Origin: Gammaproteobacteria bacterium
GTDB taxonomy: Bacteria > Pseudomonadota > Gammaproteobacteria > JACQPQ01
Direction of reading: 5' to 3'
DNA: 64,000 bases
NCBI GenBank assembly: GCA_016207405.1
Contig: JACQPQ010000018.1
Coordinates: forward strand, 20,767 to 84,766
The notes beneath the pieces were generated by a model. It was not told the origin of the DNA. It did not search any database and was given only the letters and a program-made list of their open reading frames with translations. Shown here piece by piece: positions 3,471-18,601 of this stretch. The first letter of the stretch is position 1. Each line of letters starts with the position of its first letter. The translations under genes and the position numbers were made by a program.

Positions 3471-4460
3471 ATGCGATTTTCTCTAAAGTTTGCATTGAGT
3501 CTTATGGCTATCGCTTGCCTCTTTATGGCAGGAGGTGCTGCCTATTTTGTCCGTTTTTTGTTCCACCCCTTTCACACATCCGAAGAACATGAAATCGTTT
3601 ATAGCCTAGAACGAGGCGATTCTTTGCGAGATGTCGCGCATAATTTAACTCAAAACTATCACCTTCGTGCACCGTATTTTTTTATAGTGCTTGCTATGGT
3701 TAAAGGGGTTGCTCGAGATCTACAAGCAGGAGAGTATGCGTTTTCTTCTTCTATTTCTGCATCCTCTTTATTAAGTTTATTTGTAAAAGGAGAAGTCAAA
3801 CAACATCGCTTAACGCTCATTCCAGGATGGACTTTTCAAGAAGCACGGGAAGCCATTCGTCAAGCGCCTTTTTTGACTCATACTATAGAAAGCATAGAGG
3901 AGAAAACAAATATTCAAGAAGGGTTATTGTTCCCAGACACTTATTTTTTTACTAAAGGCACATCGGACCTGGAAGTCTTAAAAAAAGCGCATCATACTCT
4001 ACAAGTTCATTTGCAGAAATTTTGGGAGACACGTTCTCGTCTTGTCCCTTACCAAACACCGTATGAAGGATTGATTCTGGCTTCACTGGTAGAAAAAGAA
4101 ACGGCGCGAGACGACGAACGCGCTAAAATTGCAGGTGTTTTTATTCGTCGTTTAAAAAAGAATATGAAACTAGAGAGTGATCCCACCGTGATTTTTGGCT
4201 TGGGTGAGCGCTATAAAGGCGTCTTGTTGAAACGGGATCTTACCCATTCGTCGCCTTACAATACCTATCTTCACAATGGGTTGCCGCCCACACCTATTGC
4301 TTTGGTCTCTCTTGCGGCACTGCAAGCTGCGTTTTCTCCAGAGGACGGAACAGCTTTATATTTTGTTGCAAATAGAAAAGGGGGACATTATTTTTCGAAT
4401 ACGTGGCATGAGCACGACAAAGCCATAAGGCAGTATCGATGGAAAAAGGACGCTTCATAA
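3471..4460 (+). CDS. mltG: Endolytic murein transglycosylase MltG (YceG family)
   Basis: N-terminal TM helix and the YceG-like motifs LIPGWTFQE and ESDPTVIFGLG. Located upstream of tmk, as in other gammaproteobacteria. Confidence 0.85.
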   Translation: MRFSLKFALSLMAIACLFMAGGAAYFVRFLFHPFHTSEEHEIVYSLERGDSLRDVAHNLTQNYHLRAPYFFIVLAMVKGVARDLQAGEYAFSSSISASSLLSLFVKGEVKQHRLTLIPGWTFQEAREAIRQAPFLTHTIESIEEKTNIQEGLLFPDTYFFTKGTSDLEVLKKAHHTLQVHLQKFWETRSRLVPYQTPYEGLILASLVEKETARDDERAKIAGVFIRRLKKNMKLESDPTVIFGLGERYKGVLLKRDLTHSSPYNTYLHNGLPPTPIALVSLAALQAAFSPEDGTALYFVANRKGGHYFSNTWHEHDKAIRQYRWKKDAS

Positions 4461-5077
4461 CTATAGAGGGCATTGAGGGGGTGGGGAAAAGCACCCATAT
4501 TTCTTTCATTGCCAACACCTTAAGAGGGAAAGGCGTCCCCGTTTTAACGACGCGTGAACCCGGGGGAACACCTCTGGCCGCCCGCATTCGAGAGCTGGTG
4601 GTAAATAAATCAGAGGATCCGCCGTCAATCCAAGCAGAGCTATTGCTGATATTTGCTGCGCGCGCTGAGCACGTGATCAAAGTCATTCAACCTGCTCTCG
4701 CCAGAGGCGAATGGGTCATCTCTGACCGATTTACTGATTCCACTTATGTCTATCAAGGACAAGGCAGGGGGGTTCCAAAAGCGCTGATCTCAAAACTTGA
4801 AAATTTTGTTCAAGGGGCTTTACGTCCTGATTGGACGGTGTTATTTGATTTAGATCCTCGTATTGCGCTTGAACGAGCAGCCCTTCGTGGAAAGAGAGAC
4901 CGGTTTGAAGAAGAAGGCATTATTTTTTTTAGGCGCCTTCGAGCGAGTTACTTAAGACGTGCGCGAAGTTTTCCACAGCGATTCCGTATCGTCGATGCTA
5001 ACCGTCCTCTTGAATCTATCCAAAATGACTTGAAGACCATTCTCGATACGTTTTTAATTGAGAAGTCGCTAAACTAG
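4439..5077 (+). CDS. tmk: Thymidylate kinase
   Basis: MEKGRFITIEGIEGVGKST P-loop and a 212-aa Tmk-like length. Confidence 0.9.
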   Translation: MEKGRFITIEGIEGVGKSTHISFIANTLRGKGVPVLTTREPGGTPLAARIRELVVNKSEDPPSIQAELLLIFAARAEHVIKVIQPALARGEWVISDRFTDSTYVYQGQGRGVPKALISKLENFVQGALRPDWTVLFDLDPRIALERAALRGKRDRFEEEGIIFFRRLRASYLRRARSFPQRFRIVDANRPLESIQNDLKTILDTFLIEKSLN

Positions 5078-5173
5078 GTACGATCTGCCTGTTGATATTC
5101 ACTTTGCACTACCTAATGATAGTCTTGGTGAAACGAGGAGCGAAGAATCCTATTACAGAGAAAGGCAATAACT

Positions 5174-6721
5174 ATGAAATTTTTTAATACCGCGGGACCG
5201 ATGGTACCAGAAGATCACTACTGTATAGATCCCTTAGAAAGAATTAACAGAAAAGAAATTTTAAATCTTATTGATCAAAAAAAATATTTCGTCATGCACG
5301 CGCCCAGGCAGACAGGGAAGACGAGTTGTTTGTTGGCTTTGAGGAATTACTTGAACGCGAGTGGGAATTTTTATTGTGTTTATGTAAACGTTGAAGATGC
5401 GCAGGCTGCAAGAGAAGATGTGGAAAGGGGCATTAGAACCATATTGTCGAAAATGGAGGGGACAATCAGTATTAATAATTCAAACATTTATCCACTATTT
5501 CAATCCATTTATCTGGAATCAAATACCATACCCGCGCATAACGCCTTGGGACGGGTTTTTCAAAAATTTAGTTCTTCTTTAGATAAACCACTTGTTATTT
5601 TCTTTGATGAGATTGATTCATTGGTAGGAGACACCTTAATTTCAGTACTGAGGCAATTAAGAGGTAGTTATGAAAATCGCCCTAAAAACTTTCCCCAGTC
5701 CATCATTTTATGTGGGATACGTGATGTCAGGGATTACAGGATTCATTCGGATAAGGAAAAAGCAATCATAACCGGCGGAAGTGCCTTTAATATTAGATCA
5801 GAATCTTTGAGACTTGGCGATTTCAGTGAAGAAGAAACAAAGAAATTATATCTTGAACACACCAAGGAAACGGGGCAAATTTTCAATGAAGATGTGTTTC
5901 CATACGTTTTTAAATTAACCGAAGGCCAACCCTGGCTTGTCAACGCCCTGGCTTACGAGACCTGTTTCAAATTAGAAAAAGACCGATCAAAGCCCATCAC
6001 AAAGGAGCTCATAGAAGAGGCAAAAGAGAACATGATTTTGAGGCGGGATACCCATATCGATATTTTGATTGATAAGTTGAGTGAAGATAGAGTTAGACGA
6101 GTCATCGACCCAATACTTTGTTCGGATGAAGATTCGCCTGAATTAAATCCAAACGATGTTTCCTATGTTATAGATATGGGCTTGATAAAAAAGAAATTGG
6201 GAAAGTATGTTGTTTCAAATGCGATTTACAGAGAAATAATTCCTCGCGAACTTATACAAACAACGCAGTATTCTTTAGAACAAGACATCCTTTGGTATAC
6301 CGAAAACAACAAATTAAGAATGGACAAACTTCTTGAGCGTTTTCAAGAATTTTTCAGAGAGAATTCTGAGGCTTGGCTTGAGCGATTCGCCTACAAAGAA
6401 GCCGGGCCCCATTTACTCCTTATGGCCTTTTTGCAAAGGGTTTTAAATGGTGGCGGGCGGATATTTAGAGAATATGGTCTGGGAATGAAAAGGATGGACA
6501 TATTAGTTGAATATCACAATGAAAAATTCGCTTTGGAGTTAAAAATATTAAGAAACGAAAAGACAAAAGAAGAAGGACTCAAACAGTTAAAGATGTATAT
6601 GGATAAATCAGCTGCGAAAGACGGCCATCTGATAATCTTTAATAAAAGCAAAGAAATATCATGGGGACAAAAAATTTATAAAGAACAAGCAAGAGATAAT
6701 ATTACGATTTGGGGGATGTAA
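5174..6721 (+). CDS. Fusion of a predicted AAA-ATPase (PF09820-like) with a C-terminal PD-(D/E)XK nuclease (PDDEXK_9-like). Function unknown.
   Basis: Walker A HAPRQTGKTS, Walker B LVIFFDEIDS, and a C-terminal D...ELK nuclease motif (RMDILVEY...ALELKIL). AT-rich relative to its neighbours. Confidence 0.7.
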   Translation: MKFFNTAGPMVPEDHYCIDPLERINRKEILNLIDQKKYFVMHAPRQTGKTSCLLALRNYLNASGNFYCVYVNVEDAQAAREDVERGIRTILSKMEGTISINNSNIYPLFQSIYLESNTIPAHNALGRVFQKFSSSLDKPLVIFFDEIDSLVGDTLISVLRQLRGSYENRPKNFPQSIILCGIRDVRDYRIHSDKEKAIITGGSAFNIRSESLRLGDFSEEETKKLYLEHTKETGQIFNEDVFPYVFKLTEGQPWLVNALAYETCFKLEKDRSKPITKELIEEAKENMILRRDTHIDILIDKLSEDRVRRVIDPILCSDEDSPELNPNDVSYVIDMGLIKKKLGKYVVSNAIYREIIPRELIQTTQYSLEQDILWYTENNKLRMDKLLERFQEFFRENSEAWLERFAYKEAGPHLLLMAFLQRVLNGGGRIFREYGLGMKRMDILVEYHNEKFALELKILRNEKTKEEGLKQLKMYMDKSAAKDGHLIIFNKSKEISWGQKIYKEQARDNITIWGM

Positions 6722-6762
6722 AAATCTATTCGTGCACGATTTAAAAGTTTCGAAACTCAACT

Positions 6763-8025
6763 ATGAACACTTTATCCTCTTTAAAAGAATTTGATCTAGA
6801 CGTCTGGCAGGCGATCGAAGGCGAGGCCACGCGACAAGAGGAACACTTGGAACTGATAGCCTCTGAAAACTATACAAGCACTCGCGTACTGGAAGCGCAA
6901 GGCTCTGTATTGACTAATAAATATGCAGAAGGGTATCCCGGTAAACGATATTATGGTGGCTGCCAGTATGTTGACCAAGCGGAAGCCTTAGCTATTCTCC
7001 GTGCCAAACAACTTTTCCATGCGGACTACGCGAACGTTCAACCGCATTCAGGCTCGTCTGCTAACATGGCAGCTTACATGGCACTTATAAAGCCTGGAGA
7101 TCTCATTCTTGGAATGCAGCTCGCTTCTGGCGGGCACTTAACCCATGGGGCTAAAGTCAGCTTCTCAGGACTGTTATACAAGAGCGTTCAATATGGCGTT
7201 GATCTTGCTACAGGACTTATCGACTACGGTGAAGTAGAACGTCTGGCAAATGAGCATCGTCCAAAGCTCATCATGGCCGGATTTTCCGCTTATTCCAGAA
7301 CGGTAGACTGGCAAAAATTTCGGGACATTGCTGACCGGGTTAAAGCTTACCTCATTGTGGACATGGCGCATGTGGCGGGGCTTGTTGCGGCAGATTTGTA
7401 TCCCAGCCCCGTCTCTATTGCGGATGTCACAACGACTACTACGCACAAAACACTACGAGGCCCGCGAGGTGGCATGATTTTAGCTAAAGCGAACCCTGAA
7501 ATTGAGAAGAAATTAAACAGCATTATTTTCCCGGGGATCCAGGGAGGGCCGTTGATGCATGTGATTGCGGCAAAAGCCGTCGCTTTAAAAGAAGCAATGT
7601 CCCCTGAATTCAAAATTTATCAGCAGCAAGTCATTACCAATGCGAGAAAAATGGCAGCCGTGTTTATACAAAGAGGGTATCCGGTTTTATCGGGTGGTAC
7701 AGACAACCATTTATTTCTAGTGGACTTGAGAAGCAAACCGATTACAGGATTAGAAGCAGAAGAAGCTCTAGGCAAGGCTTATATTACGGTGAATAAAAAT
7801 GCCATCCCACAGGATCCGAGGCCGCCGACCATCACGAGTGGGATCCGGATAGGCACTCCTGCCATGACGACGCGAGGGATGAAAGAAGAGCATGCTGCCG
7901 AAGTAGCCCATTGGATGTGTGATGTGTGTGATGCGCCCAAGGACGCCGCATGTCTCGCTCGCACAAAAGAAAACGTTCTTTGTTTGTGTCGGCAGTTTCC
8001 GGTTTACCGCCCTGGCCCCCTCTGA
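6763..8025 (+). CDS. glyA: Serine hydroxymethyltransferase
   Basis: [10 protein letters not shown] motif and the PLP-lysine region [14 protein letters not shown]. 420 aa. Confidence 0.95.
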
Positions 8026-8026
8026 A

Positions 8027-9145
8027 ATGTTTACACCTCAAGAAAGTGCTTGGATGCAGGAAGCACTTCTTCTTGCAGAAAAAGGACTTTACACGACCCA
8101 TCCGAATCCACGGGTAGGCTGTCTCATTGTAAAAAATGGACGTGGGATCGGACGCGGATGGCATACGCGCGTGGGTGAGCCGCATGCGGAAGTTTTGGCC
8201 ATGCAGGAAGCAGGCGAGGAAGCGCGAGGCGGAACGGGGTATGTGACTTTAGAACCTTGCGCACACTTTGGGCATACCCCTCCTTGCGATGAAGCTTTGA
8301 TTTCCGCAGGACTTTCACGAGTGGTCGCGAGCACTCTGGATCCTTACTGGCAAGTTTCGGGCCGTGGGGTAAAACATCTGAAGCAGGCTGGAATTCAAGT
8401 GGATGTGGGCCTTTTACAAGAAAAAGCGCGCACTTTAAATAAAGGCTATTTTAAGCGACATACCCAAAAAGTGCCTTGGGTTACGTGCAAAATGGCTATG
8501 AGTTTAGACGGAAGAACGGCACTTGCGACAGGCGAAAGTAAATGGCTGACAGGCTCTGAAGTAAAACAAGCGGTTATGCACCTTCGCGCGCAATCCTCTG
8601 CCATTATAACGGGAGTTGGGACGGTTCTTCAGGATGATCCCTTCCTCACGGTGCGCGGTAAGGAAACAGAGTGCCAGCCTCTTCGGGTGGTTGTAGATTC
8701 TCACCTAAGAAGTTCTGAAGTGGCACACATTTTTAGTCAACCGCCCACCACTTTGATAGCAACGACTTCTCGAGATCTTAAAAAAACAGAGGCGTTTCAG
8801 GGGAGAGGGGTTAAAGTAGTGAGATTGCCTGCCAACTCCAAAGGCCAGGTTTCCTGTCGAAGTCTCTTGGAGTATCTTGCAACCACACAGGCGGTCAATG
8901 AAGTCTTATTAGAAGCAGGGCCTACACTTGCTGGATCTTTTCTTTCAGAGCGCTTGATCGATGAAATAGTCATTTTTATGGCACCCAAATTGCTAGGAAA
9001 TTCTGCGCAAGGCTTATTTCAATTGCCGTTTATTCAAAAATTAGAAGAGGCACTCCCTCTTCAGATCCTCCATATAAAACCTGTCGGATATGATTGGCAA
9101 ATTCACGTGAAACCTTGTTATAAAAATGAAGTACCCCCTCCCTGA
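8027..9145 (+). CDS. ribD: Bifunctional riboflavin biosynthesis deaminase/reductase
   Basis: Deaminase zinc motifs HAEVLA and PCAHFGHTPPC plus a C-terminal RibG reductase domain. The in-frame ATG at 8027, right after the glyA stop, is preferred over the overlapping 7919 start. Confidence 0.9.
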   Translation: MFTPQESAWMQEALLLAEKGLYTTHPNPRVGCLIVKNGRGIGRGWHTRVGEPHAEVLAMQEAGEEARGGTGYVTLEPCAHFGHTPPCDEALISAGLSRVVASTLDPYWQVSGRGVKHLKQAGIQVDVGLLQEKARTLNKGYFKRHTQKVPWVTCKMAMSLDGRTALATGESKWLTGSEVKQAVMHLRAQSSAIITGVGTVLQDDPFLTVRGKETECQPLRVVVDSHLRSSEVAHIFSQPPTTLIATTSRDLKKTEAFQGRGVKVVRLPANSKGQVSCRSLLEYLATTQAVNEVLLEAGPTLAGSFLSERLIDEIVIFMAPKLLGNSAQGLFQLPFIQKLEEALPLQILHIKPVGYDWQIHVKPCYKNEVPPP

Positions 9146-10290: not shown

Positions 10291-10367
10291 GCGCCCGTAG
10301 CTCAGTTGGATAGAGTTCCTGGCTTCGAACCAGGCGGTCGGGGGTTCGAGTCCCTCCGGGCGCGCCA
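10291..10367 (+). tRNA. tRNA-Arg, anticodon TCG
   Basis: 77-nt cloverleaf GCGCCCG/.../CGGGCGC-G-CCA with anticodon loop CUUCGAA and T-loop GGTTCGAGTCC. Closely resembles E. coli tRNA-Arg. Confidence 0.85.
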
Positions 10368-10372
10368 GTTAA
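10322..10372 (+). repeat. attL, a 51-bp direct repeat comprising the 3' half of tRNA-Arg
   Basis: Identical to 16076..16126 (gcttcgaaccaggcggtcgggggttcgagtccctccgggcgcgccagttaa). Confidence 0.85.
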
Positions 10373-10380
10373 TCAAGGGG

Positions 10381-10869
10381 TTATACAACTTTCCGCAAAC
10401 CCATCTCAACCCCTTGCGGGACTTTTGCGGGAGCTACGTTCCGCAAAAGCTTGAGTACTGTGACTGTAGCGCTTTCCTTTTTCTCACACACTGCGTTTGC
10501 AGCACGAACTAAATTGGTTAATTCAGCTGCAGAATAGTGCGTGGTTATCCTCCCCGATCGATGCCCCAGTAAATCCTGTCGATCTTCAAAACTCACCCCT
10601 GCGGAACGCAAACGCCTCCCAAAGGTATGTTTCAGATCATGCACGCGAACGTCTATGCCAGCCAGTTTGCGCGCACGCTTCCAAGCTGAGTTGTTCATCT
10701 TGGTAACATAATGCCCTTTATAGGTAAAAACATATTCAGGATGCATCCCACGAACTTCTTCAAGCACCGATTTGGCAACACTGTTTAGCACTACCAATCG
10801 ATCCTCCCGGTTTTTGACAACATGAGCAGGGATCAAAAATACGCTCGTGTTTAACTCTGGTACAGACAC
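10381..10869 (-). pseudogene. Tyrosine recombinase/integrase remnant carrying only the C-terminal catalytic domain
   Basis: HDLKHTFGRRLRSAGVSFEDRQDLLGHRSGRITTHYSAAEL carries the R/HxxR/Y catalytic signature. Only about 160 aa remain and no N-terminal SAM/core-binding domain is recognisable upstream. Confidence 0.7.
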
Positions 10870-11274
10870 TTCCCACTCCCATCGTAGTTGACATACCTCT
10901 TAGAACACTGCGCAGTTACCTCTATCGACCAAAGTATCGATCCTTCTCGCGGCTACCGCGACGATTTTGAAATTGTAGTGGTTTACCGCTACCAGTACCA
11001 AACCATTTCTGTGTATGGCAAGCCTGGTACAAGCCACAATTTCAACGGCAAAACTTATGGTTGCGTGCTGTTTGAAGGCCACCCACTTGCCGCAGGTAGT
11101 GCTCCACGCGGTGCCAAAATGACTGAAGAACAGGCTACCGAGGTGTTCAATGCCTTGGTGAGTCTGTAAATCGGAAACAAGAGTATTTAAACCGTCATGT
11201 CCACGCATGACCTAGATTTGTAATGACCGTCACCACGTGGGTTTGGTGACACAGCCCTTTGAAAGGGGCAAAAG

Positions 11275-11910
11275 ATGAACAGTTTGCAATACAATGATGG
11301 CCTGCTCAATGCAGGTCGGACCCCGAAACTATTTTTGGTTCTCTCCAATGGAAATATCGTAAAGTTCCAGGGAGAAAACATCCCCGGCATCCTGGTCGTC
11401 AAATCCAGCAAATACCAAAAAAATGGCAAGTGGTCGAACACCACGTACCAACTGGAAATAGCTGATGGAGTTGGCGTCTGGGAAGCAACATCCCAAATGC
11501 ACCAAGGCTATTGGGATGCAATCGCTTCGTGGGAAGAAGCACAGGCGCACGTTATTGCACAAGGGGGCCACTTCGTTTCGGTGGAGGAAGTCAAACGAGT
11601 CGTTTTGGCTACGTGGGAAAAGGCCGCCGCTCGGTTTGATACCACAGCCGAAGCATTGGCGAAAATGACTGTGGCGCCAACGGAGCCAAAATCGTTTACC
11701 TTTGGAAGCCCAACCAACCGCGCCATCGAAAATGGCTATTGGGAATCCCCGAAGGAACACGATGGCGTGAGCTTCAAATTGGTTGATCCCACCAAAGGAT
11801 GGACAACGGGAAATGTGATCGCAGACAAACCTGGGATCGTGGTCACTAATGTAACGCATCGCTCAGGGATGCATGGAGGCTACTACACCATTCAGTATAT
11901 GGTTCAGTAG
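11275..11910 (+). CDS. Hypothetical island cargo protein with no recognisable domain
   Basis: 211-aa ORF followed by a hairpin and T-run at 11977..11995. Confidence 0.4.
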   Translation: MNSLQYNDGLLNAGRTPKLFLVLSNGNIVKFQGENIPGILVVKSSKYQKNGKWSNTTYQLEIADGVGVWEATSQMHQGYWDAIASWEEAQAHVIAQGGHFVSVEEVKRVVLATWEKAAARFDTTAEALAKMTVAPTEPKSFTFGSPTNRAIENGYWESPKEHDGVSFKLVDPTKGWTTGNVIADKPGIVVTNVTHRSGMHGGYYTIQYMVQ

Positions 11911-11976
11911 TCGTCCAACCGCACGGCTTTTGCCAACACCGACAATCTACAAGCAGCAATAAACGGTGTTAAACAG

Positions 11977-11995
11977 AGGCCCGCGGCCTTTTTAT
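11977..11995 (+). terminator. Putative rho-independent terminator
   Basis: aggcccgcggcct stem followed by ttttta. Confidence 0.4.
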
Positions 11996-12072
11996 TTGAG
12001 TCTCAAAAATAAACGGTCGATTATTTTTGAGTTATAATCGCTGCCTCAAGGGATAAAACCGAGACTGCTGAC

Positions 12073-12696
12073 ATGGACGAAACCACATCTCAAAAAACTA
12101 TTTCCTATCTGCGTGTTTCCACCATCGATCAAGATTTAGAAAAAAACAAAGCGGATATTCTGCATCTGGCGCACGAAAAACGTTTGGGTAAGGTTAAATT
12201 TGTGCAGGAAAAGATTTCGGGCGCCATCCCCTGGCGACAACGCAAGGTTGGCAAGGTGGTCAATCAACTCAAAAAGGGGGATGCATTGATTGTGAGTGAG
12301 CTTTCGCGCCTGGGTAGAAGCATGTTGGAATGCATGGAAATTCTTTCTATCGCCGCCCAAAAGGGTATTAGGGTTTATTCTGTCAAAGGTAACTGGCAAT
12401 TAGATGGCAGCATCCAAAGCAAAATCATCGCCATGGCCTTTAGTATGGCGGCGGAAATAGAGCGAGATCTGATCTCGAAACGCACGATTGAGGCCCTGCG
12501 CGCCAAAAAAGCCCAGGGCGTTACACTTGGCCGTCCTAAAGGCTCTGGCAGCAGCAAGCTCGACCCTGTTGCCCCTAAAATCCAAACAATGCTTAACAAG
12601 GGTGCAACCAAACGCGCCATTGCCAACCGTTTTAGCACCACGGAATCTAACCTGTATGTGTGGCTTAAGAAGCGGGAGGCCCTTGCAACAGCCTGA
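12073..12696 (+). CDS. Small serine recombinase of the resolvase/invertase family
   Basis: YLRVSTIDQ catalytic serine motif, the LSRLGRS motif and a C-terminal HTH. 207 aa. Confidence 0.85.
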   Translation: MDETTSQKTISYLRVSTIDQDLEKNKADILHLAHEKRLGKVKFVQEKISGAIPWRQRKVGKVVNQLKKGDALIVSELSRLGRSMLECMEILSIAAQKGIRVYSVKGNWQLDGSIQSKIIAMAFSMAAEIERDLISKRTIEALRAKKAQGVTLGRPKGSGSSKLDPVAPKIQTMLNKGATKRAIANRFSTTESNLYVWLKKREALATA

Positions 12697-13418
12697 TGAT
12701 TTCGGCCCTCTAATCCCCTGTATGCCTAGTGTTTGGTGGTTACAATTTGTTGCAAAACTTTACGTCCCAGTAACAGACAAGCGCCAAGCTTACGGCTATT
12801 ATCTAAACAATAGGATTTGGAATCGTCATGGCAGACCTAAAGCGCATCAAAAAATAAGGGCTTAGGCGTTAACAAAAAGTTGCCAAGTTTTACACAAATG
12901 TAACAGACAAACCCTAGAATCCGATGTACGCTTAAACTCACAAGGACAAAAACCCGTCAAGGCCGACCCGAAATCAAAATGCCATTTCAGGTGGATATAG
13001 AGATAGGCGAGTTTCGATAAAAACGAAGGTTTATTTTTGAGACTTTTAAGCACGTTTTTATCGGAGTTTTTCAAGGTGTAAAAAAACACAGTTTGAAAGA
13101 CAGGTTTACCCTTCCTCTTTATTCATTTTTTACCATCTTCTGAAATCTGTCTGTCACTATTCGTCTTTAGCCATTGGTTCGTAAAAAGCCATTAGGCGCA
13201 AGCGCATTTATACAAATGCTTTTGCATCTAGTGGTTTTCTCTTGAAGTTTATCTGATAAAAACTTCAAGCCATTTGGCTTCAGATCAGTTGTCATAATGA
13301 CGCTGCCTGTTGTCCAGATGGTTTGAAGTGAAGTCTAATTTCCCGTTTTTTTTTATTTTCCAATGGAGCCCTCTGCCGATGCAATACTCGGCTGGTTAAA
13401 AACCAAGGGGGAAACGGC

Positions 13419-14201
13419 ATGTTAACATTAGGCAATCTTTCTCTTAGTTCCAATGTTGCAATCGTTTTCGCTAAGGGCGAAAAACTCCGCGTAAGATTTA
13501 TGTGTTCCTGCGGAGAAGACCTTGCAACAGGGCAAGGCCAGTGGGGTAGTCAGGATTTGGTGTTTAAAAGACCCACTGTGGTTGTAGTCGAGGAATTGGG
13601 AGACTGGAGAGGCAAGTTGTCTTGCAAGCATCTTCGCTTTGCGAGAGCACTGCGTGAGGAAAGGCTAACCTCAGAGCTTTCGAATGCGGTATCTCCGTAT
13701 CCGAAGTTACGGACGGCTCTAAATCACGCAGGTGTACCGAAAATGGAGGTGCCGGGTGGCTTCAATCGTGCGTTGAAGTATGCGGACGAAATTCTCGTTC
13801 CTGATTACTCAACAACGTCTGGTTCATCCGGTTGGTTGGTCAAGAATTCTGAGGTGGGGAAGTATTTGAGAGGGTTACCCCCGCTAAAGGATTCTGGGGA
13901 GATAGGGCGCATTTGGGTTAACTTCGTTGGGTTCGTAAATACACCTGACGAGTGTTCAATCCGAGTTTGTTCCGAAGATCCGACTGGGCAGGAAGCACCC
14001 AGCTATTACGACTGGCCACGTGGCTGCTATATGTCGACCAACCACCAGATTTTTAGGGTGGAGTTCGATAAAAAAAGCCATCGCGTGAAGAAGATTTATA
14101 ATCAGACTCATGGCACCGAGCAGGGAGAGGTCTACTACAAGGTTCGCCCTGTAGGCAGATCGATATCTGTTGGCCAACGTCTGCCACGCGATTGCCGGTA
14201 G
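13419..14201 (+). CDS. Hypothetical protein with no recognisable domain, flanked by related palindromic sites
   Basis: 260-aa ORF with a GTG/ATG start. Confidence 0.35.
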   Translation: MLTLGNLSLSSNVAIVFAKGEKLRVRFMCSCGEDLATGQGQWGSQDLVFKRPTVVVVEELGDWRGKLSCKHLRFARALREERLTSELSNAVSPYPKLRTALNHAGVPKMEVPGGFNRALKYADEILVPDYSTTSGSSGWLVKNSEVGKYLRGLPPLKDSGEIGRIWVNFVGFVNTPDECSIRVCSEDPTGQEAPSYYDWPRGCYMSTNHQIFRVEFDKKSHRVKKIYNQTHGTEQGEVYYKVRPVGRSISVGQRLPRDCR

Positions 14202-14499
14202 CAAAACGCCCGCCCGGGGGTTAATCCGGGATGCCTTTTCAGGTTGTTATATGCTCGGCGTTTGTGGTGGAAACACTGCAGGCGCCTTTTATTTTTCAGT
14301 CTCCAAAATAAACCTTCTTTTTTACTTGAGACTTCCTGCCAGATTGAACAGAAGACAGGCGCGGCGGTACAAGTAGCCAAACATTTCCATTGACAGCTTT
14401 TCAGATCGCGGGGTAAGCTTGCTGGCAAGACTTAGTGGGACGACAGAAAATTTCTGGAATTAAAAACAAAATGAACGTCACTCTTGTTATCGGCGTCAC

Positions 14500-15225
14500 A
14501 TGCCATTAAAAAGCGAATTTTCAAGCATGCATAAGCCAAAGAAATCAGAGAACCCTAAGGTTACCCCCCTGACTTTTGAAGGTCTTGTTCACTCGATTCG
14601 TGCCATCCATGATGATCTGGCCGCTCAGGCTGATCGTGCCGTTAATATCAGCCTTACACTGCGGAACTGGTTGATTGGTTGTTACATCGCAGAGTATGAG
14701 TTGAATGGTGCCGATCGGGCCCATTATGGCGAGAAACTACTGCCGGAGCTTGCACACCAGCTTACCCAACTCAATGTCAGCAATTGCAACCGACGACAGT
14801 TGTATGATTACTTGAAGTTCTATCGTACCTATCCCCAAATAGTGCGGACGCTGTCGGCACAATTGAAACACTTGTCTCCCAAAACTATTCCCGCCGCCCT
14901 TGAAAAAGTGCCGACAGTGTCGGCACAATCTGGTCTACCACCGGAACGCCTCATCAGCTCCCTTTCCTATAGCATGTTTAAGTCTTTGGTAGAGATGGAT
15001 GACAACGTTAAACGAGCTTTCTACGAAATAGAATGCATTAAAGGCAATTGGTCCGTACGTGAACTTAAGAGGCAGATAGCTTCGCTCTACTTCGAGCGCT
15101 CTGGTTTGTCCTATGATAAGGTGAAATTGGCCAGGCTTGCTTGGGAGGGTACTGAAAAAGCAGAGGGCCAGGCCACGACTCAAGGTTTCCTGTCCGTTGT
15201 GAACTGTGGTGGGGTTGAAAACTAA
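14500..15225 (+). pseudogene. YhcG/DUF1016 family N-terminal domain only. The PD-(D/E)XK nuclease C-terminal domain is missing.
   Basis: AFYEIECIKGNWSVRELKRQIASLYFERSGLSYDK matches the DUF1016 N-terminal signature. The ORF ends without the nuclease half. Confidence 0.55.
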
Positions 15226-15403
15226 GTGATTGGCCTTTGGTGTCTGTCAGGGTTAGCGTTTTATTTTCCGCATCTATGGTTTGTACGCGGTAGTAGGCAC
15301 CTTTATGTAGCGGTTCGAAGGTGCGATTAGCGCGAATCATATCACCCACTTGGTAGCTGCTCACTTGTGCCTGTTGTGCTCGGGTAAGCCCTCGGTTAAC
15401 CAA
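15226..15403 (-). pseudogene. Fragment resembling the SH3-like domain of RecD/TraA-type helicases or relaxases
   Basis: LTRAQQAQVSSYQVGDMIRANRTFEPLHKGAYYRVQTID. The rest of the listed ORF is antisense to the YhcG fragment. Confidence 0.25.
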
Positions 15404-15440
15404 AATTGAGGTGTTGATTTCTTGATTAGACTTAAAGAGG

Positions 15441-15869
15441 GTGCATCAATCACATCCTAGGAATGAGCTAATTGCGAAAGTATTTTATGATACTGGTTTT
15501 ATTGAGAAGTGGGGTACAGGCACCACGAAAATGCTTACTCTGTGTAAGGAGCATAGGTTACCAGAACCGGAATTTTCGGAATATTCCGGCGGATTTTCCA
15601 TCCAATTTAAGTTTAAAGCCTCTTTGGGCGCCATTTCCCTAGCAATTAGAACTAAATCCCCTTTGAGTTCTAGGCAGTCTGACATCCTGCAGATCATTGG
15701 TAAGTATGGTAAAGCGAAGATGCAGTACATTTTGTCAGAGCTTAAAGATCCTCCAACCTCCAGGATGGTTTTAAAGGACCTAAATCATTTAAAGGAATTG
15801 GGTTTGATTGAGTTAGAAGGTAGTACAAAAGCAGCCTTATGGACTATTAAACCAAAAAATGCACCGTAA
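15441..15869 (+). pseudogene. C-terminal HATPase_c_4/wHTH fragment of a Schlafen/AlbA_2-type ATP-binding protein
   Basis: RNELIAKVFYDTGFIEKWGTGTTKMLTLCKEHRLPEPEFSEY matches the C-terminal domain of putative DNA-binding/RecG-like proteins. The N-terminal AlbA_2 part is absent. Confidence 0.5.
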
Positions 15870-16075
15870 TTTTTTATGCGAACTTTTTACGAACTTTATG
15901 CGAATCTTTTACGAACTTGTGGGCAACACCACATGCTGGTCACACTAAGACGCAAAAACCCTTGCGGGACTTTTGCGTATTTGGGTTATATGCCGTTATA
16001 GTTTGTTATGGGTTTGCAACGGGCGCCACACAAAATATATTGTTATTTATCAAGTTGTTAACTTTTACTTCTCTA

Positions 16076-16126
16076 GCTTCGAACCAGGCGGTCGGGGGTT
16101 CGAGTCCCTCCGGGCGCGCCAGTTAA
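16076..16126 (+). repeat. attR, the second copy of the 51-bp tRNA-Arg 3'-half repeat
   Basis: Exact duplicate of 10322..10372. Confidence 0.85.
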
Positions 16127-16166
16127 ACCAAAATAGAAAAAATGACTGGGCAGTGACCCTTCCCCC

Positions 16167-16427
16167 TTATTTTCGATAGACATCCCGTCGATGTCCAATT
16201 TTATAAATGACAATTTTTCCATTTTCTTCATCCAGTAGGCAGATAATTCTGTAGTCCCCTTGGCGTACTCGAAATTTTTCATCCCCTGCTAATTTTTCCG
16301 CAGATACGGTTTTAAGCCCATGGGATAAACCTCGAATTTTTTCTACAATTCTCTGAACATCTTTTTTAGGAAGCTTGTCTAATTCCTTAAACGCCGACCG
16401 CTTAAATAAAATTTCATATTTTTCCAT
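16167..16427 (-). CDS. Type II toxin of the RelE/ParE family
   Basis: 86 aa ending in YRIICLLDEENGKIVIYKIGHRRDVY. Confidence 0.8.
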   Translation of the reverse strand: MEKYEILFKRSAFKELDKLPKKDVQRIVEKIRGLSHGLKTVSAEKLAGDEKFRVRQGDYRIICLLDEENGKIVIYKIGHRRDVYRK

Positions 16428-16647
16428 GCGCTTTTAAATCCTTTAGAACGGCGGCAAATGCAAGTTCTGGTTCACAAGCACGTTCTTTAAAAATCGCCAA
16501 ATCCATTTCGTCTTCTCTTAAAGTTTGAATCAAAGATTCATTGACAATTTCAGAAATTGAATGGTTTGTTTCGACTGATTTAATTCGAAGCGCCTTATGG
16601 ATAACTGGTTCAATGTACACGGTAGTTCGTTTAGTTAATGCACTCAT
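16414..16647 (-). CDS. Putative antitoxin, small RHH/DinJ-like protein
   Basis: Overlaps the toxin start and is about 78 aa from the internal Met. Confidence 0.6.
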   Translation of the reverse strand: MSALTKRTTVYIEPVIHKALRIKSVETNHSISEIVNESLIQTLREDEMDLAIFKERACEPELAFAAVLKDLKAHGKI

Positions 16648-16907
16648 AGTATTCACCTCATACAAATTATAGCATCACAACATTATAACATCAAACTGCT
16701 TTAGACGAGAGTGCGGTGGGCTGTTGAACAGCAATTTCTACGGATTCATGACTTGACCACGGGGTCTAGCACGCTCACCATTCATTGGCTTTACAAAACT
16801 TTACAAAATTCTGTTTGCAGGGGATCAATCTATACACTTAAAATGGCAGCACCAGATTGGGGTTTCTCTTACCCTCATTCATTCAAAAACATGAAACTTC
16901 AGAAAAA

Positions 16908-18590
16908 ATGATAAACAAACTTTATTCCTTCATGAGCTTTGCAGTAGTTCTATTATTGCTTTCCATTTCTCTTTTGGCAGAACCCATTCCGTATGATCCG
17001 GATAAAGACTTCTCAAAAGGACAATTTGACCTGCAACAGTTCCTAGTAGAGTCTGAAAAACAAGTCACCGATCCAGAAATTTATCTAGCCTGCTGCAAAA
17101 ATTTTGACCAATTTACGACGTCCCTTGCAAATGAATTCACAGAAGAGAACCTAAAAACCTATTCCATGCAAGATTTGTTGAATCATGTGGTACGTCAAAT
17201 GGATCAAAAAGGGAGAATTTTAAGAGGAGGGAGTAAGTCCTTTATGCTTTCTTCTTTTTCAGGGCAGAAAAATAGAAAAAAACCTATCTACGACTGTGAT
17301 ATCTCTTGTGCCACTGCACAAGTAGTGCTTTTTAAACTTCAAAAAAAATTCCCACACTACCAAATACTCGATAATTTTCGGTTGATTGAAATTCCAGGGC
17401 ATATGGCCTGTGCCATTATAGACGGTAATCAAAAATACTATGCTGACTTGAATGGTGATTGGAATGATTTGAAGGAAGGCGAGGAAAGCAAGCTGGCATT
17501 CCAATCTCCTCCTGACTATTTAAAAGGATGCGATTTAAGCTCTTCTTATCATCCAGAACTGGATTCTGAAGAGGAGATAAAGTCCTGGCATTTTTCTCTT
17601 TTGGCTCTTCATTACTACCTTTTAGGGAACAATAGGGCTTGCCAAACATATTTGGATAAATCGTTTAGCGGTAAAAATGATATGGTTCAGACACTGGCAC
17701 TTCAAGCAGAACTTTTCTATGAAGAAGGAAAATATCTGGAAGCTATTGCAGTCTATGAAAAAATAGAATCCATCCTAGTGGGTGAAACCAATTACCCTCA
17801 TTGGGTTGACGCATTATGCAAAACAAAGCAACCCAAAAAAGTGCTTAAGCTTATCGAAGGGCTTCCAGTAGAGGTCCTCCATTCTCCAACTGCAAGTATT
17901 CCATGGTGCAAAGCACAAGCGTTCCACACTTTGAGTAGAAAGTACTATAAAAAGAAACAATTTAAAAATGGGTTGTCATTTGCCCAAAAAGCGCTTGAAT
18001 CTTACGAAGAAGCTTATCAGCAATATAACGACCCTTACTATTTAGAAATTAAAACGCTGAAAGAAAGTATAAAGGCAAAAGCCGAAGCAAAAGCCAGATT
18101 AGAAGGAGAAGAAAACACAGAGCAAGAAGCAGAAAAAGCCCTGCATCAGTTTGAAAGGCTATATCGATTGTATCAAAAGGGGGTAGCAAATATTGAGAGT
18201 GACCTAAATGATTCTATAGAAAACTATCTTTCTCAATACGTAGATCTCAATGAAATGAATGCCGGAAAAGAAACCGTTATTATTGAACATGAGCAATTTT
18301 TAAAAGAAATTAGCGCACGGATAGAAAAATCAAAGACATCCAAGAAAGCTAAGCAAAAATTGGCTTCTGCCCTTAAGGCATGTAATCTTTATACGAAATT
18401 TTTTAAGAAAATCAAATTCCCACAAGATGAGATTGTTTTTCTCCTAAAGCCCCTGTACCAATATCTTGCTAAAAATGCTGGCTTGCAAAGTGCCGAAGAT
18501 TTGAGCGATTTTAGTACTGGCCTGTTGGAAAAACGGGATGACAAGAGGCAAGAGCTTTTTGAAGTTTTAAAAGCAGCGGCGGAAAATTAG
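16908..18590 (+). CDS. Secreted TPR-like/coiled-coil protein of unknown function
   Basis: Signal peptide MINKLYSFMSFAVVLLLLSISLLA, a TPR-like region and a K/E-rich coiled-coil tail. The gene is AT-rich. Confidence 0.5.
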   Translation: MINKLYSFMSFAVVLLLLSISLLAEPIPYDPDKDFSKGQFDLQQFLVESEKQVTDPEIYLACCKNFDQFTTSLANEFTEENLKTYSMQDLLNHVVRQMDQKGRILRGGSKSFMLSSFSGQKNRKKPIYDCDISCATAQVVLFKLQKKFPHYQILDNFRLIEIPGHMACAIIDGNQKYYADLNGDWNDLKEGEESKLAFQSPPDYLKGCDLSSSYHPELDSEEEIKSWHFSLLALHYYLLGNNRACQTYLDKSFSGKNDMVQTLALQAELFYEEGKYLEAIAVYEKIESILVGETNYPHWVDALCKTKQPKKVLKLIEGLPVEVLHSPTASIPWCKAQAFHTLSRKYYKKKQFKNGLSFAQKALESYEEAYQQYNDPYYLEIKTLKESIKAKAEAKARLEGEENTEQEAEKALHQFERLYRLYQKGVANIESDLNDSIENYLSQYVDLNEMNAGKETVIIEHEQFLKEISARIEKSKTSKKAKQKLASALKACNLYTKFFKKIKFPQDEIVFLLKPLYQYLAKNAGLQSAEDLSDFSTGLLEKRDDKRQELFEVLKAAAEN

Positions 18591-18601
18591 AAACTTCGCA
18601 A

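Follow-up and report, generated by a model that had tools for sequence, protein, structure and literature searches.

What could a solitary gene for an ATPase fused to a nuclease be doing among the housekeeping genes of a bacterium, and how did it get there? This question is raised by a 64,000-nucleotide stretch of DNA from a Gammaproteobacteria bacterium (GenBank assembly GCA_016207405.1, contig JACQPQ010000018.1, positions 20,767 to 84,766), which is called the window throughout. Positions 5174..6721 (+) hold an intact open reading frame (ORF) of 515 amino acids (aa) with an ATG start, located between mltG-tmk and glyA-ribD. Pfam matches, homologues, and a structure model describe its product as an AAA_35-type AAA+ ATPase followed by a helical lid, a winged helix, and a PD-(D/E)XK nuclease. 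A preliminary description of the window had given the same coordinates and had proposed that the gene was a horizontally acquired ATPase-nuclease fusion with the architecture expected of a stand-alone anti-phage or anti-plasmid effector. The comparisons presented here indicate that the gene is a horizontally acquired single-gene insertion and that it belongs to a large family spread across Bacteria and Archaea. A role as a self-contained, ATP-gated nuclease in conflict or defence is plausible, and the chances for and against this putative function are about even.

A Single-Gene Insertion between tmk and glyA

The neighbours of the gene are readily assigned by Pfam. A DegP-like protease, SucD, YceG/MltG, and Tmk lie upstream, and SHMT/GlyA, RibD, and MnmA lie downstream, followed by a tRNA-Arg and a truncated integrase. 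MltG, Tmk, GlyA, and RibD are the flanks that the preliminary description had named. It had also assumed that tmk is often followed by holB or other core genes; in the host lineage, it is glyA that comes after tmk. The nearest Tmk relatives of the host come from poorly sampled metagenomes. One related contig, L089, encodes a Tmk that is 75% identical and a GlyA that is 84% identical at the protein level, and its gene order is mltG-tmk, 8 bp, glyA, with the ATPase-nuclease gene absent. The DNA homology between L089 (53-1627) and the window (3519-5066) breaks off near the end of tmk and resumes at L089 1640-2047, which corresponds to window 6762-7169. The empty tmk-glyA junction of L089 thus implies that the window carries an insert of approximately 1.69 kb (5078-6762) with this ORF alone. 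Parsimony favours a gain in the lineage of the window over a precise loss from L089. The horizontal insertion that had been proposed for the locus is supported by these alignments.

The borders of the insert are short and plain. At the 5′ side, 96 non-coding nucleotides separate the tmk stop from the ORF start (5078..5173, +), and at the 3′ side, 41 non-coding nucleotides precede the glyA start codon (6722..6762, +); both are absent from L089. A promoter-like site at 5092-5120 is no better than chance, and neither a terminator nor, in an Rfam scan, an RNA element was found at the borders. No convincing terminal inverted repeats or target-site duplication were detected there, and an ACGAT-containing similarity between both borders is too short to count. 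The DNA homology to the closest family member (77.6%) is limited to 5161-6723, which is essentially the ORF alone, and no conserved non-coding flanks are shared with the closest relatives. A transposon or insertion sequence was considered and rejected: the insert has no other ORF and no border repeats, and no mobility gene recurs among the neighbours of the family.

The base composition of the gene is of less help. Its GC content is 0.371, compared with 0.467 in the flanks, which places it in the lowest 0.3% of equal-length windows, so the AT-richness that had been remarked upon is genuine. The deficit arises mostly at codon positions 1 and 2. The GC content at third codon positions (GC3) is 0.372 and lies inside the host range of 0.34-0.47. 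For this reason, composition alone is weak evidence of foreign origin and was downgraded as a proof of it.

Family Assignment and Architecture of the Protein

The only Pfam family above its curated cutoff in the window protein is AAA_35 (PF14516), which matches aa 40-354 with 37.7 bits (E 1.4e-9) against a gathering threshold of 27 bits. Most homologues carry a precomputed PF14516 assignment. The matches below threshold are PF09820 (15.9 vs 26.1 bits), PDDEXK_3 (19.7 vs 22), and Tox-REase-9. In the preliminary description, the protein had been assigned to the PF09820/PDDEXK_9 type, the architecture of the DUF1703 proteins (PF09820 plus PF08011). Both domains hold at the level of the fold, and the profile search that it had recommended shows that the family named was wrong: PF09820 stays under its cutoff, and PDDEXK_9 (PF08011) is a weak relative that the C-terminus of the window protein itself does not match. 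Searches of the Protein Data Bank (PDB) by sequence gave no match to the whole protein or to a C-terminal profile. No paper on PF14516 was found in the literature, in agreement with the earlier statement that proteins of this kind have no assigned function.

The two modules were examined in homologue alignments of 28 and 117 sequences and in an AlphaFold monomer model built from the larger alignment (mean pLDDT 83.9). All gene features below lie on the plus strand. The model outlines an AAA+ core at aa 36-215 (5279..5818). The Walker A motif, or P-loop, APRQTGKT (aa 43-50, 5300..5323) is invariant from A43 through T50 in the 117 homologues, and so are D145 and E146 of the Walker B motif VIFFDE (hhhhD145-E146; aa 141-146, 5594..5611). 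Both motifs had been reported before, and the copy in the window has every residue that is invariant in the family. Behind the core, the alignment and the model place a helical lid (aa 219-290, 5828..6043) with an invariant GQPW motif, and the model then shows a winged-helix unit of three helices and a beta-hairpin (aa 293-347, 6050..6214) with a linker to aa 380. This layout, in which a five-stranded core bears both Walker motifs and the lid and winged helix come after it, places the protein among AAA+ ATPases of the ATPase_2/ORC/STAND-like kind. In the structure comparison, the archaeal ATPase_2 proteins 2qen (PAB2304) and 2fna (SSO1545) ranked first, and the next-nearest structures are oligomerising switches, namely NLR, CED-4, MalT, Avs3, ORC/Cdc6, TnsC, and MuB.

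Three parts of the ATPase module deserve attention. A conserved loop, G-x-RDVRDYR...ITGGSAFN (aa 181-210, 5714..5803), contains the invariant residues G181, R183, Y188, G201, G202, F205, and N206 in the 117-sequence alignment and is modelled as disordered, with a pLDDT <50 in the monomer. We infer from the model that this loop may be ordered only in an oligomer or in a ligand-bound state. The second part is a helical insert at aa 91-140 (5444..5593), the one strongly hypervariable block in an otherwise highly conserved protein and the first proposed specificity module. Its column entropy of 2.1-2.8 bits is the highest in the alignment (the motifs are <1), and its three helices are modelled at a pLDDT of 96-97. 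The mean net charge of this insert is -2.2. The acidic character argues against direct DNA binding by the block, and the idea that it represents an ORC-type basic DNA-binding element was found to be unsupported. The third part is the winged-helix unit with its linker, where entropy peaks at aa 311-330, 341-350, and 361-380; it is the second proposed specificity module.

The C-terminal domain (aa 381-515, 6314..6718) is a restriction-endonuclease-fold nuclease of the PD-(D/E)XK type according to the model and clan-level Pfam matches. The alignment and the model put its catalytic residues at E433 (6470-6472), D442 (6497-6499), and E455-L-K457 (6536-6544), together spanning 6470..6544. E433, D442, E455, K457, Q471, and Y475 are invariant in the 117 sequences, and these residues include the D...ELK motif that had been noticed earlier. 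The modelled core has the order alpha-beta-beta-beta-alpha-beta; D442 stands at the start of beta2, and beta3 carries E455 and K457, which is the canonical placement in this superfamily. When homologue C-termini were scanned singly in Pfam, PDDEXK_3 was matched in 21/30 and PDDEXK_9, weakly, in 11/30 (best E 1e-5), and nearly all of the remaining weak matches belong to the same clan. The nearest fold matches are nucleases of restriction and defence, among them McrC, Cap4, Can2, Shedu, and HamA, and the fold also matches NucS, Hjc, Bax1, and Cas4. By its residues, the nuclease is predicted to be catalytically complete. Pfam, the scans of C-termini, the model, and the structure matches all uphold the fusion of an AAA-type ATPase to a PD-(D/E)XK nuclease.

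Size and Spread of the Family

The family is very large. At least 8000 database proteins match the window protein, and thousands of them are full-length, with E-values down to 1e-290, so the observed motifs exceed chance. An exhaustive search of 1.84 billion cluster representatives gave approximately 813 clusters at 50% identity with E <= 1e-30. Full-length members are nearly all 500-560 aa long and cover the whole query down to ~34% identity, which means that the architecture is fixed.

Reference genomes hold copies of ~50% identity in Desulfobacterota, Acidobacteriota, Latescibacterota, Chloroflexota, Bacteroidota (Prevotella, Bacteroides), Spirochaetia, Firmicutes, Verrucomicrobiota, and Gammaproteobacteria, as well as in the methanogenic archaea Methanothrix and Methanospirillaceae. 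The nearest homologues, which are 84% and 71% identical, reside in other organisms and in unrelated contexts. Family members were found on 16 of 72,556 plasmids, mostly large cyanobacterial replicons. Carriage by phages was not detected in 50,697 phage records, IMG/VR gave no match to the family, and the viral structures of BFVD gave generic AAA+ folds alone (TM-score <= 0.40). This distribution shows that the gene crosses the boundaries of phyla and domains, and it does so with no partner gene.

Tandem Copies and Recombined Modules

In some genomes, the gene is repeated. Two or more family copies lie within 10 kb of each other at 12/87 loci. In a triple array of Desulfarcum and a pair in Competibacteraceae, the spacers between copies are near-identical within each genome. 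The genes of these two arrays are mosaics, in which segments of 97-100% identity alternate with segments of 58-70% identity, and the segments of low identity coincide with the aa 91-140 block (HV) and the winged-helix/linker region (WH). The Desulfarcum array illustrates this well: copy a combines HV1 with WH1, copy b HV2 with WH1, and copy c HV1 with WH2. In the codon analysis, copies a and c are identical at aa 91-140 (pN 0) and copy b differs (pN 0.27, pS 0.90), while the winged-helix block is shared by copies a and b (pN 0.024) and differs in copy c (pN 0.25). The two blocks are thus swapped independently of each other among tandem paralogues.

Several further details of the arrays were recorded. 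The spacers of the triple array in Ca. Desulfarcum epimagneticum (L007, 8180-13400) are ~120 nt long and nearly identical; each opens at the stop codon with a run of GAGTTT repeats, spaced ~6-9 nt apart, and then has a GC-rich hairpin. The repeats also come after the last copy; a role in termination, in binding, or as a substrate of recombination is conceivable. In a Competibacteraceae metagenome-assembled genome (MAG; L004, 11579-13480), a GC-rich palindromic element follows each tandem copy, and downstream of the second copy a duplication takes in both this element and the final codons of the gene (...GGGGGATGTGA). This duplication suggests recombination at the 3′ end of the gene. At a third locus (L027, 8363-9941), a copy split into two frames (query aa 2-252 and 251-515) lies directly upstream of an intact copy and looks like a frameshifted pseudogene within a tandem pair. 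One protein of 993 aa (P0241) has two family-matching stretches and probably stems from two tandem copies that were fused or read through.

Genomic Neighbourhoods

Neighbours were sampled at positions ±1 and ±2 of ~85 loci with a crude ORF picker, which yielded 242 proteins. No recurrent partner gene or operon and no recurrent transposase or integrase was found among them. The commonest Pfam family at ±1 occurs 3 times. The sole mildly recurrent neighbour is a gene of the AAA_14 plus DUF4143 type (PDC-S01 in PADLOC), the commonest at ±2 with 4 occurrences and present twice more at ±1 (6/242). Other defence-type neighbours are single or double and comprise an AAA_5 ATPase (McrB-like), DpdF, a type II restriction endonuclease, AbiEii, and MkoA.

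Individual loci can be rich in defence genes. A copy on a Pseudanabaena plasmid clearly belongs to a defence island, whose other members are a DUF1156/helicase pair, a ubiquitin-like E1/E2 cassette, ImmA/IrrE, cas6, a PIN toxin, and cas1/cas2. McrBC is encoded near a copy in a Wallbacteria MAG, PDC-S01 and PDC-S27 genes adjoin the closest homologue of the window protein, an AlbA_2 gene and an MNT-HEPN pair lie near the 71% homologue (L002), and toxin-antitoxin genes occur near some copies. By contrast, further copies are found between two haemagglutinin genes or in a carbohydrate-utilisation cluster. In the Wallbacteria MAG (L005, 11548-11892), a 114-aa ORF for a GIY-YIG nuclease starts 3 nt after the stop of the family gene and lies downstream of McrBC and of a Tag glycosylase gene. 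This pairing was seen at one place alone, the same locus in two assemblies (L005 and L006).

Comparison with Known Systems

The closest counterpart in architecture is the PADLOC candidate PDC-S27, in which an ATPase_2 (PF01637) AAA+ protein carries a PD-(D/E)XK C-terminus of the DUF234 type. Both families have an AAA+ core, a lid, a winged helix, and a restriction-endonuclease-fold domain in the same order, and both are solitary and horizontally spread in Bacteria and Archaea. A comparison of a PDC-S27-type protein with the AAA_35-family profile in hhalign gave an E-value of 2e-4 over 217 ATPase columns; this remote homology spans both Walker motifs and the ILCG strand, and the GG-x-PW of the former aligns with the GQPW of the latter. 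Unlike PDC-S27, the window protein lacks ATPase_2 among its Pfam matches and any match in PADLOC (E <= 1 in each case), and its family has features of its own, namely a conserved FFNTAGP motif at the N-terminus, the RDVRDYR...GGSAFN loop, and the hypervariable insert. Sequence profiles therefore set it apart as a separate family with the architecture of PDC-S27 that PADLOC 2.0.0 does not detect.

PDC-S01 (AAA_14 plus DUF4143, COG1373-type) is likewise a solitary ATPase fused to a domain of the PD-(D/E)XK superfamily and is very widespread (PMC12988326), but its ATPase belongs to a different family, and hhalign against a DUF4143 protein gave no meaningful match, with no sequence relationship detected outside the E-x-K strand (probability 7%). 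Both PDC-S01 and PDC-S27 came from a guilt-by-embedding screen that gave 145 candidates (10.1101/2024.01.29.577857). These ATPase domains fused to PD-(D/E)XK members are among the most prevalent candidates, especially in Archaea (PMC12988326). The DUF1703 proteins are known for paralogue expansions, horizontal transfer, and intragenic recombination among paralogues (PMC6387759; PMC3424549), and this recombination (PMC6387759) parallels the tandem mosaics of the AAA_35 family.

Better-known systems provide parallels in logic. As is proposed for the AAA_35 family, McrBC couples an oligomerising AAA+ NTPase to a restriction-fold nuclease, but it consists of two proteins, its McrB, a GTPase of the AAA_5 type, recognises modified DNA through an N-terminal domain, and McrBC has no sequence relationship to the family. 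The activation of Avs/STAND sensors (SeAvs3, 8dgc) and NLR switches through oligomerisation is a model for the mechanism proposed below. Avs proteins are 1000-2000 aa long, with large C-terminal tetratricopeptide repeat (TPR) sensors and N-terminal effectors, whereas the 515-aa window protein has its nuclease at the C-terminus. It has neither a PADLOC match to Avs nor a repeat sensor, and it is not assigned to the STAND/Avs sensors.

Possible Function and Alternative Explanations

The function that we consider plausible, at about even chances, is that of an ATP-gated nuclease acting on its own in conflict or defence. The ATPase, of the ATPase_2/STAND/ORC type, would serve as a nucleotide-dependent assembly switch rather than as a translocase. 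The two variable modules, one being the helical insert (aa 91-140) and the other the winged helix with its linker, would recognise a cue derived from an invader, either foreign nucleic acid or protein. ATP-dependent oligomerisation would order the RDVRDYR...GGSAFN loop and pair the nuclease domains, and DNA would be cut. Tandem arrays of paralogues that reshuffle the two modules would broaden the range of recognised cues. A bolder version of the same idea is rather unlikely. It holds that the family is an uncatalogued class of single-protein immune receptor-nucleases, in which the same two modules, exchanged independently, set the specificity and the tandem arrays form a small germline repertoire diversified by recombination. 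By analogy, such a repertoire may be comparable to the shuffling of target-recognition domains in the specificity subunits of type I restriction systems, here placed within an ATP-gated nuclease. In this version, the ATPase-nuclease gene may also promote its own insertion beside essential operons.

A number of observations weigh against a defence role. The AAA_35 family is known from sequence and predicted structure alone. The hypervariable block is acidic, and no repeat domain of the TPR, leucine-rich repeat (LRR), or WD40 type that could act as a sensor is present in the Pfam matches or the model of the 515-aa protein. Positive selection was not detected: dN/dS stays <1 throughout the regions analysed, or the synonymous sites there are saturated. 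This implies that the variation consists of old alleles that were recombined and not of recent positive selection. When candidates were tested in E. coli B with T7, T5, and T4, four gave protection, and the one representative each of PDC-S01 and PDC-S27 was not one of them (10.1101/2024.09.26.614923). The search of PADLOC 2.0.0, which the preliminary description had recommended, returned 0 families at E <= 1, and NCBIfam gave no match to the window protein either. Many copies lie by ATP synthase, isoprenoid, riboflavin, alanine dehydrogenase, or efflux genes; some follow the F1Fo ATP synthase operon directly, and others are located beside ribF/uppS/dxr. The association with defence is present and is not systematic. 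The defence role suggested earlier is still a putative one: some loci are defence-associated, but the PADLOC search is empty, no partner gene recurs, and the defence genes are scattered among the 242 neighbours. The contexts of homologues are likewise of a mixed kind, non-conserved and at times defence-associated, but often beside housekeeping operons. It was not found that homologues are confined to conserved contexts free of defence genes or that the domain assignments fail, since the domains hold at the level of the fold.

The clean borders of the insert invite another explanation, that of a selfish homing-like nuclease gene. Its ATPase and winged helix would find a chromosomal site, its nuclease would cut the empty allele, and repair would copy the gene in, so that the gene would persist to its own advantage and not to that of the host. 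The single-gene insertion without a mobility gene, inverted repeats, or a duplication fits this explanation, as do the restriction of homology between close relatives to the ORF, the multiple dispersed and tandem copies in some genomes, and the heterogeneous insertion sites, often by essential operons where a deletion is risky. The variable modules could retarget the nuclease. Homing, however, copies a gene between homologous flanks, and the flanks of close relatives are entirely different. Strong purifying selection, with more than 80 invariant residues and ~50% identity across phyla, is unlike the typical decay cycle of homing genes. Free-standing homing genes flourish in phages, and the phage and viral collections searched gave no match to the family. 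To our knowledge, no homing endonuclease with an AAA+ module has been described, which also counts against this explanation, and on balance it is unlikely.

The same purifying selection, together with the frequent housekeeping neighbours, would suit a cellular factor outside conflict, such as an ATPase-nuclease of DNA repair, replication restart, or chromatin (ORC/Cdc6-like or NucS-like) that some lineages have kept. The ATPase does resemble ORC/Cdc6 and clamp-loader-type AAA+ proteins with a winged helix, and the nuclease fold extends to NucS, Hjc, Bax1, and Cas4. The absence of the gene from the same locus in L089 is at odds with such a factor, and its patchy cross-domain distribution points to horizontal transfer; paralogue arrays with shuffled variable modules and the lack of conserved neighbours or an operon also speak against it, so a cellular factor is very unlikely. 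A last alternative is a transposon-type remnant or accessory, in which a TnsC/MuB-like target-selecting ATPase would be fused to a TnsA-like nuclease. TnsA is indeed a PD-(D/E)XK nuclease. Nevertheless, ATPase_2 and STAND proteins are the better structural matches, the insert holds this gene alone, terminal inverted repeats and target duplications are lacking, no transposase or integrase recurs among the 242 neighbours, and no DDE-transposase element with defined ends was seen around family members at the 87 sampled loci. This origin is extremely improbable.

Other Features of the Window and of a Related Locus

A different solitary gene was found near mltG-tmk in another relative of the host. 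In L088 (Tmk 65% identical), positions 4958-8630 hold a MazE-PIN pair and an AAA_14-DUF4143 gene of the PDC-S01 type just upstream of mltG-tmk, which means that the same chromosomal neighbourhood gained a different solitary ATPase-nuclease gene in a related lineage. In the window, the longest ribD ORF starts from a GTG at 7919 and overlaps glyA by ~100 nt (7919-8060). Since residue 41 is the first of the RibD deaminase domain, ribD probably has its true start further downstream.

A small, decayed integrative island occupies 10291-18600, after the tRNA-Arg(TCG) at 10291-10367. Its tyrosine integrase (10381-10869, minus strand) is truncated and covers positions 52-168 of the 172-position Phage_integrase model. 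The island also contains unassigned ORFs and a serine recombinase (12073-12696), and the core genes mlaA, pyrH, tsf, rpsB, and map resume after it. Because glyA-ribD-mnmA separate it from the ATPase-nuclease gene, the island is not the vehicle of that gene. At 14500-15225, an ORF has a DUF1016_N domain alone and matches the N-terminal half of the PADLOC PDC-S02 models (E 5e-46). By its appearance, it is what truncation has left of a further solitary candidate defence gene of the PD-(D/E)XK type. An ORF of 142 aa at 15441-15869 matches the C-terminal part of HATPase_c_4 alone and seems to be part of a broken AlbA_2/Schlafen-type gene; a gene of that kind also adjoins the 71% homologue in L002. 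A second low-GC patch (<= 0.385) extends over 15800-18590. It includes a 577-aa ORF (16857-18590) whose N-terminus resembles a signal peptide and whose body is helical and repeat-like; this ORF has no Pfam or PADLOC match, and the ~1 kb upstream of this ORF contains no ORF >= 120 aa.

Conclusions

In bacteria and archaea, the candidate immune genes of greatest abundance include solitary ones that join an ATPase to a PD-(D/E)XK domain, such as PDC-S01, PDC-S27, and DUF1703. The AAA_35 family is a further large branch of this class, present in both domains and undetected by PADLOC 2.0.0. The tmk-glyA junction offers an unusually clean natural comparison of one locus with and without the gene, and the naturally module-swapped paralogues can be used directly to map the determinants of specificity. 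Should the family prove defensive, the immune repertoire would gain a compact ATP-gated nuclease, and the sister families would become easier to explain. If it is selfish, it would show how a nuclease gene can spread without mobility genes.

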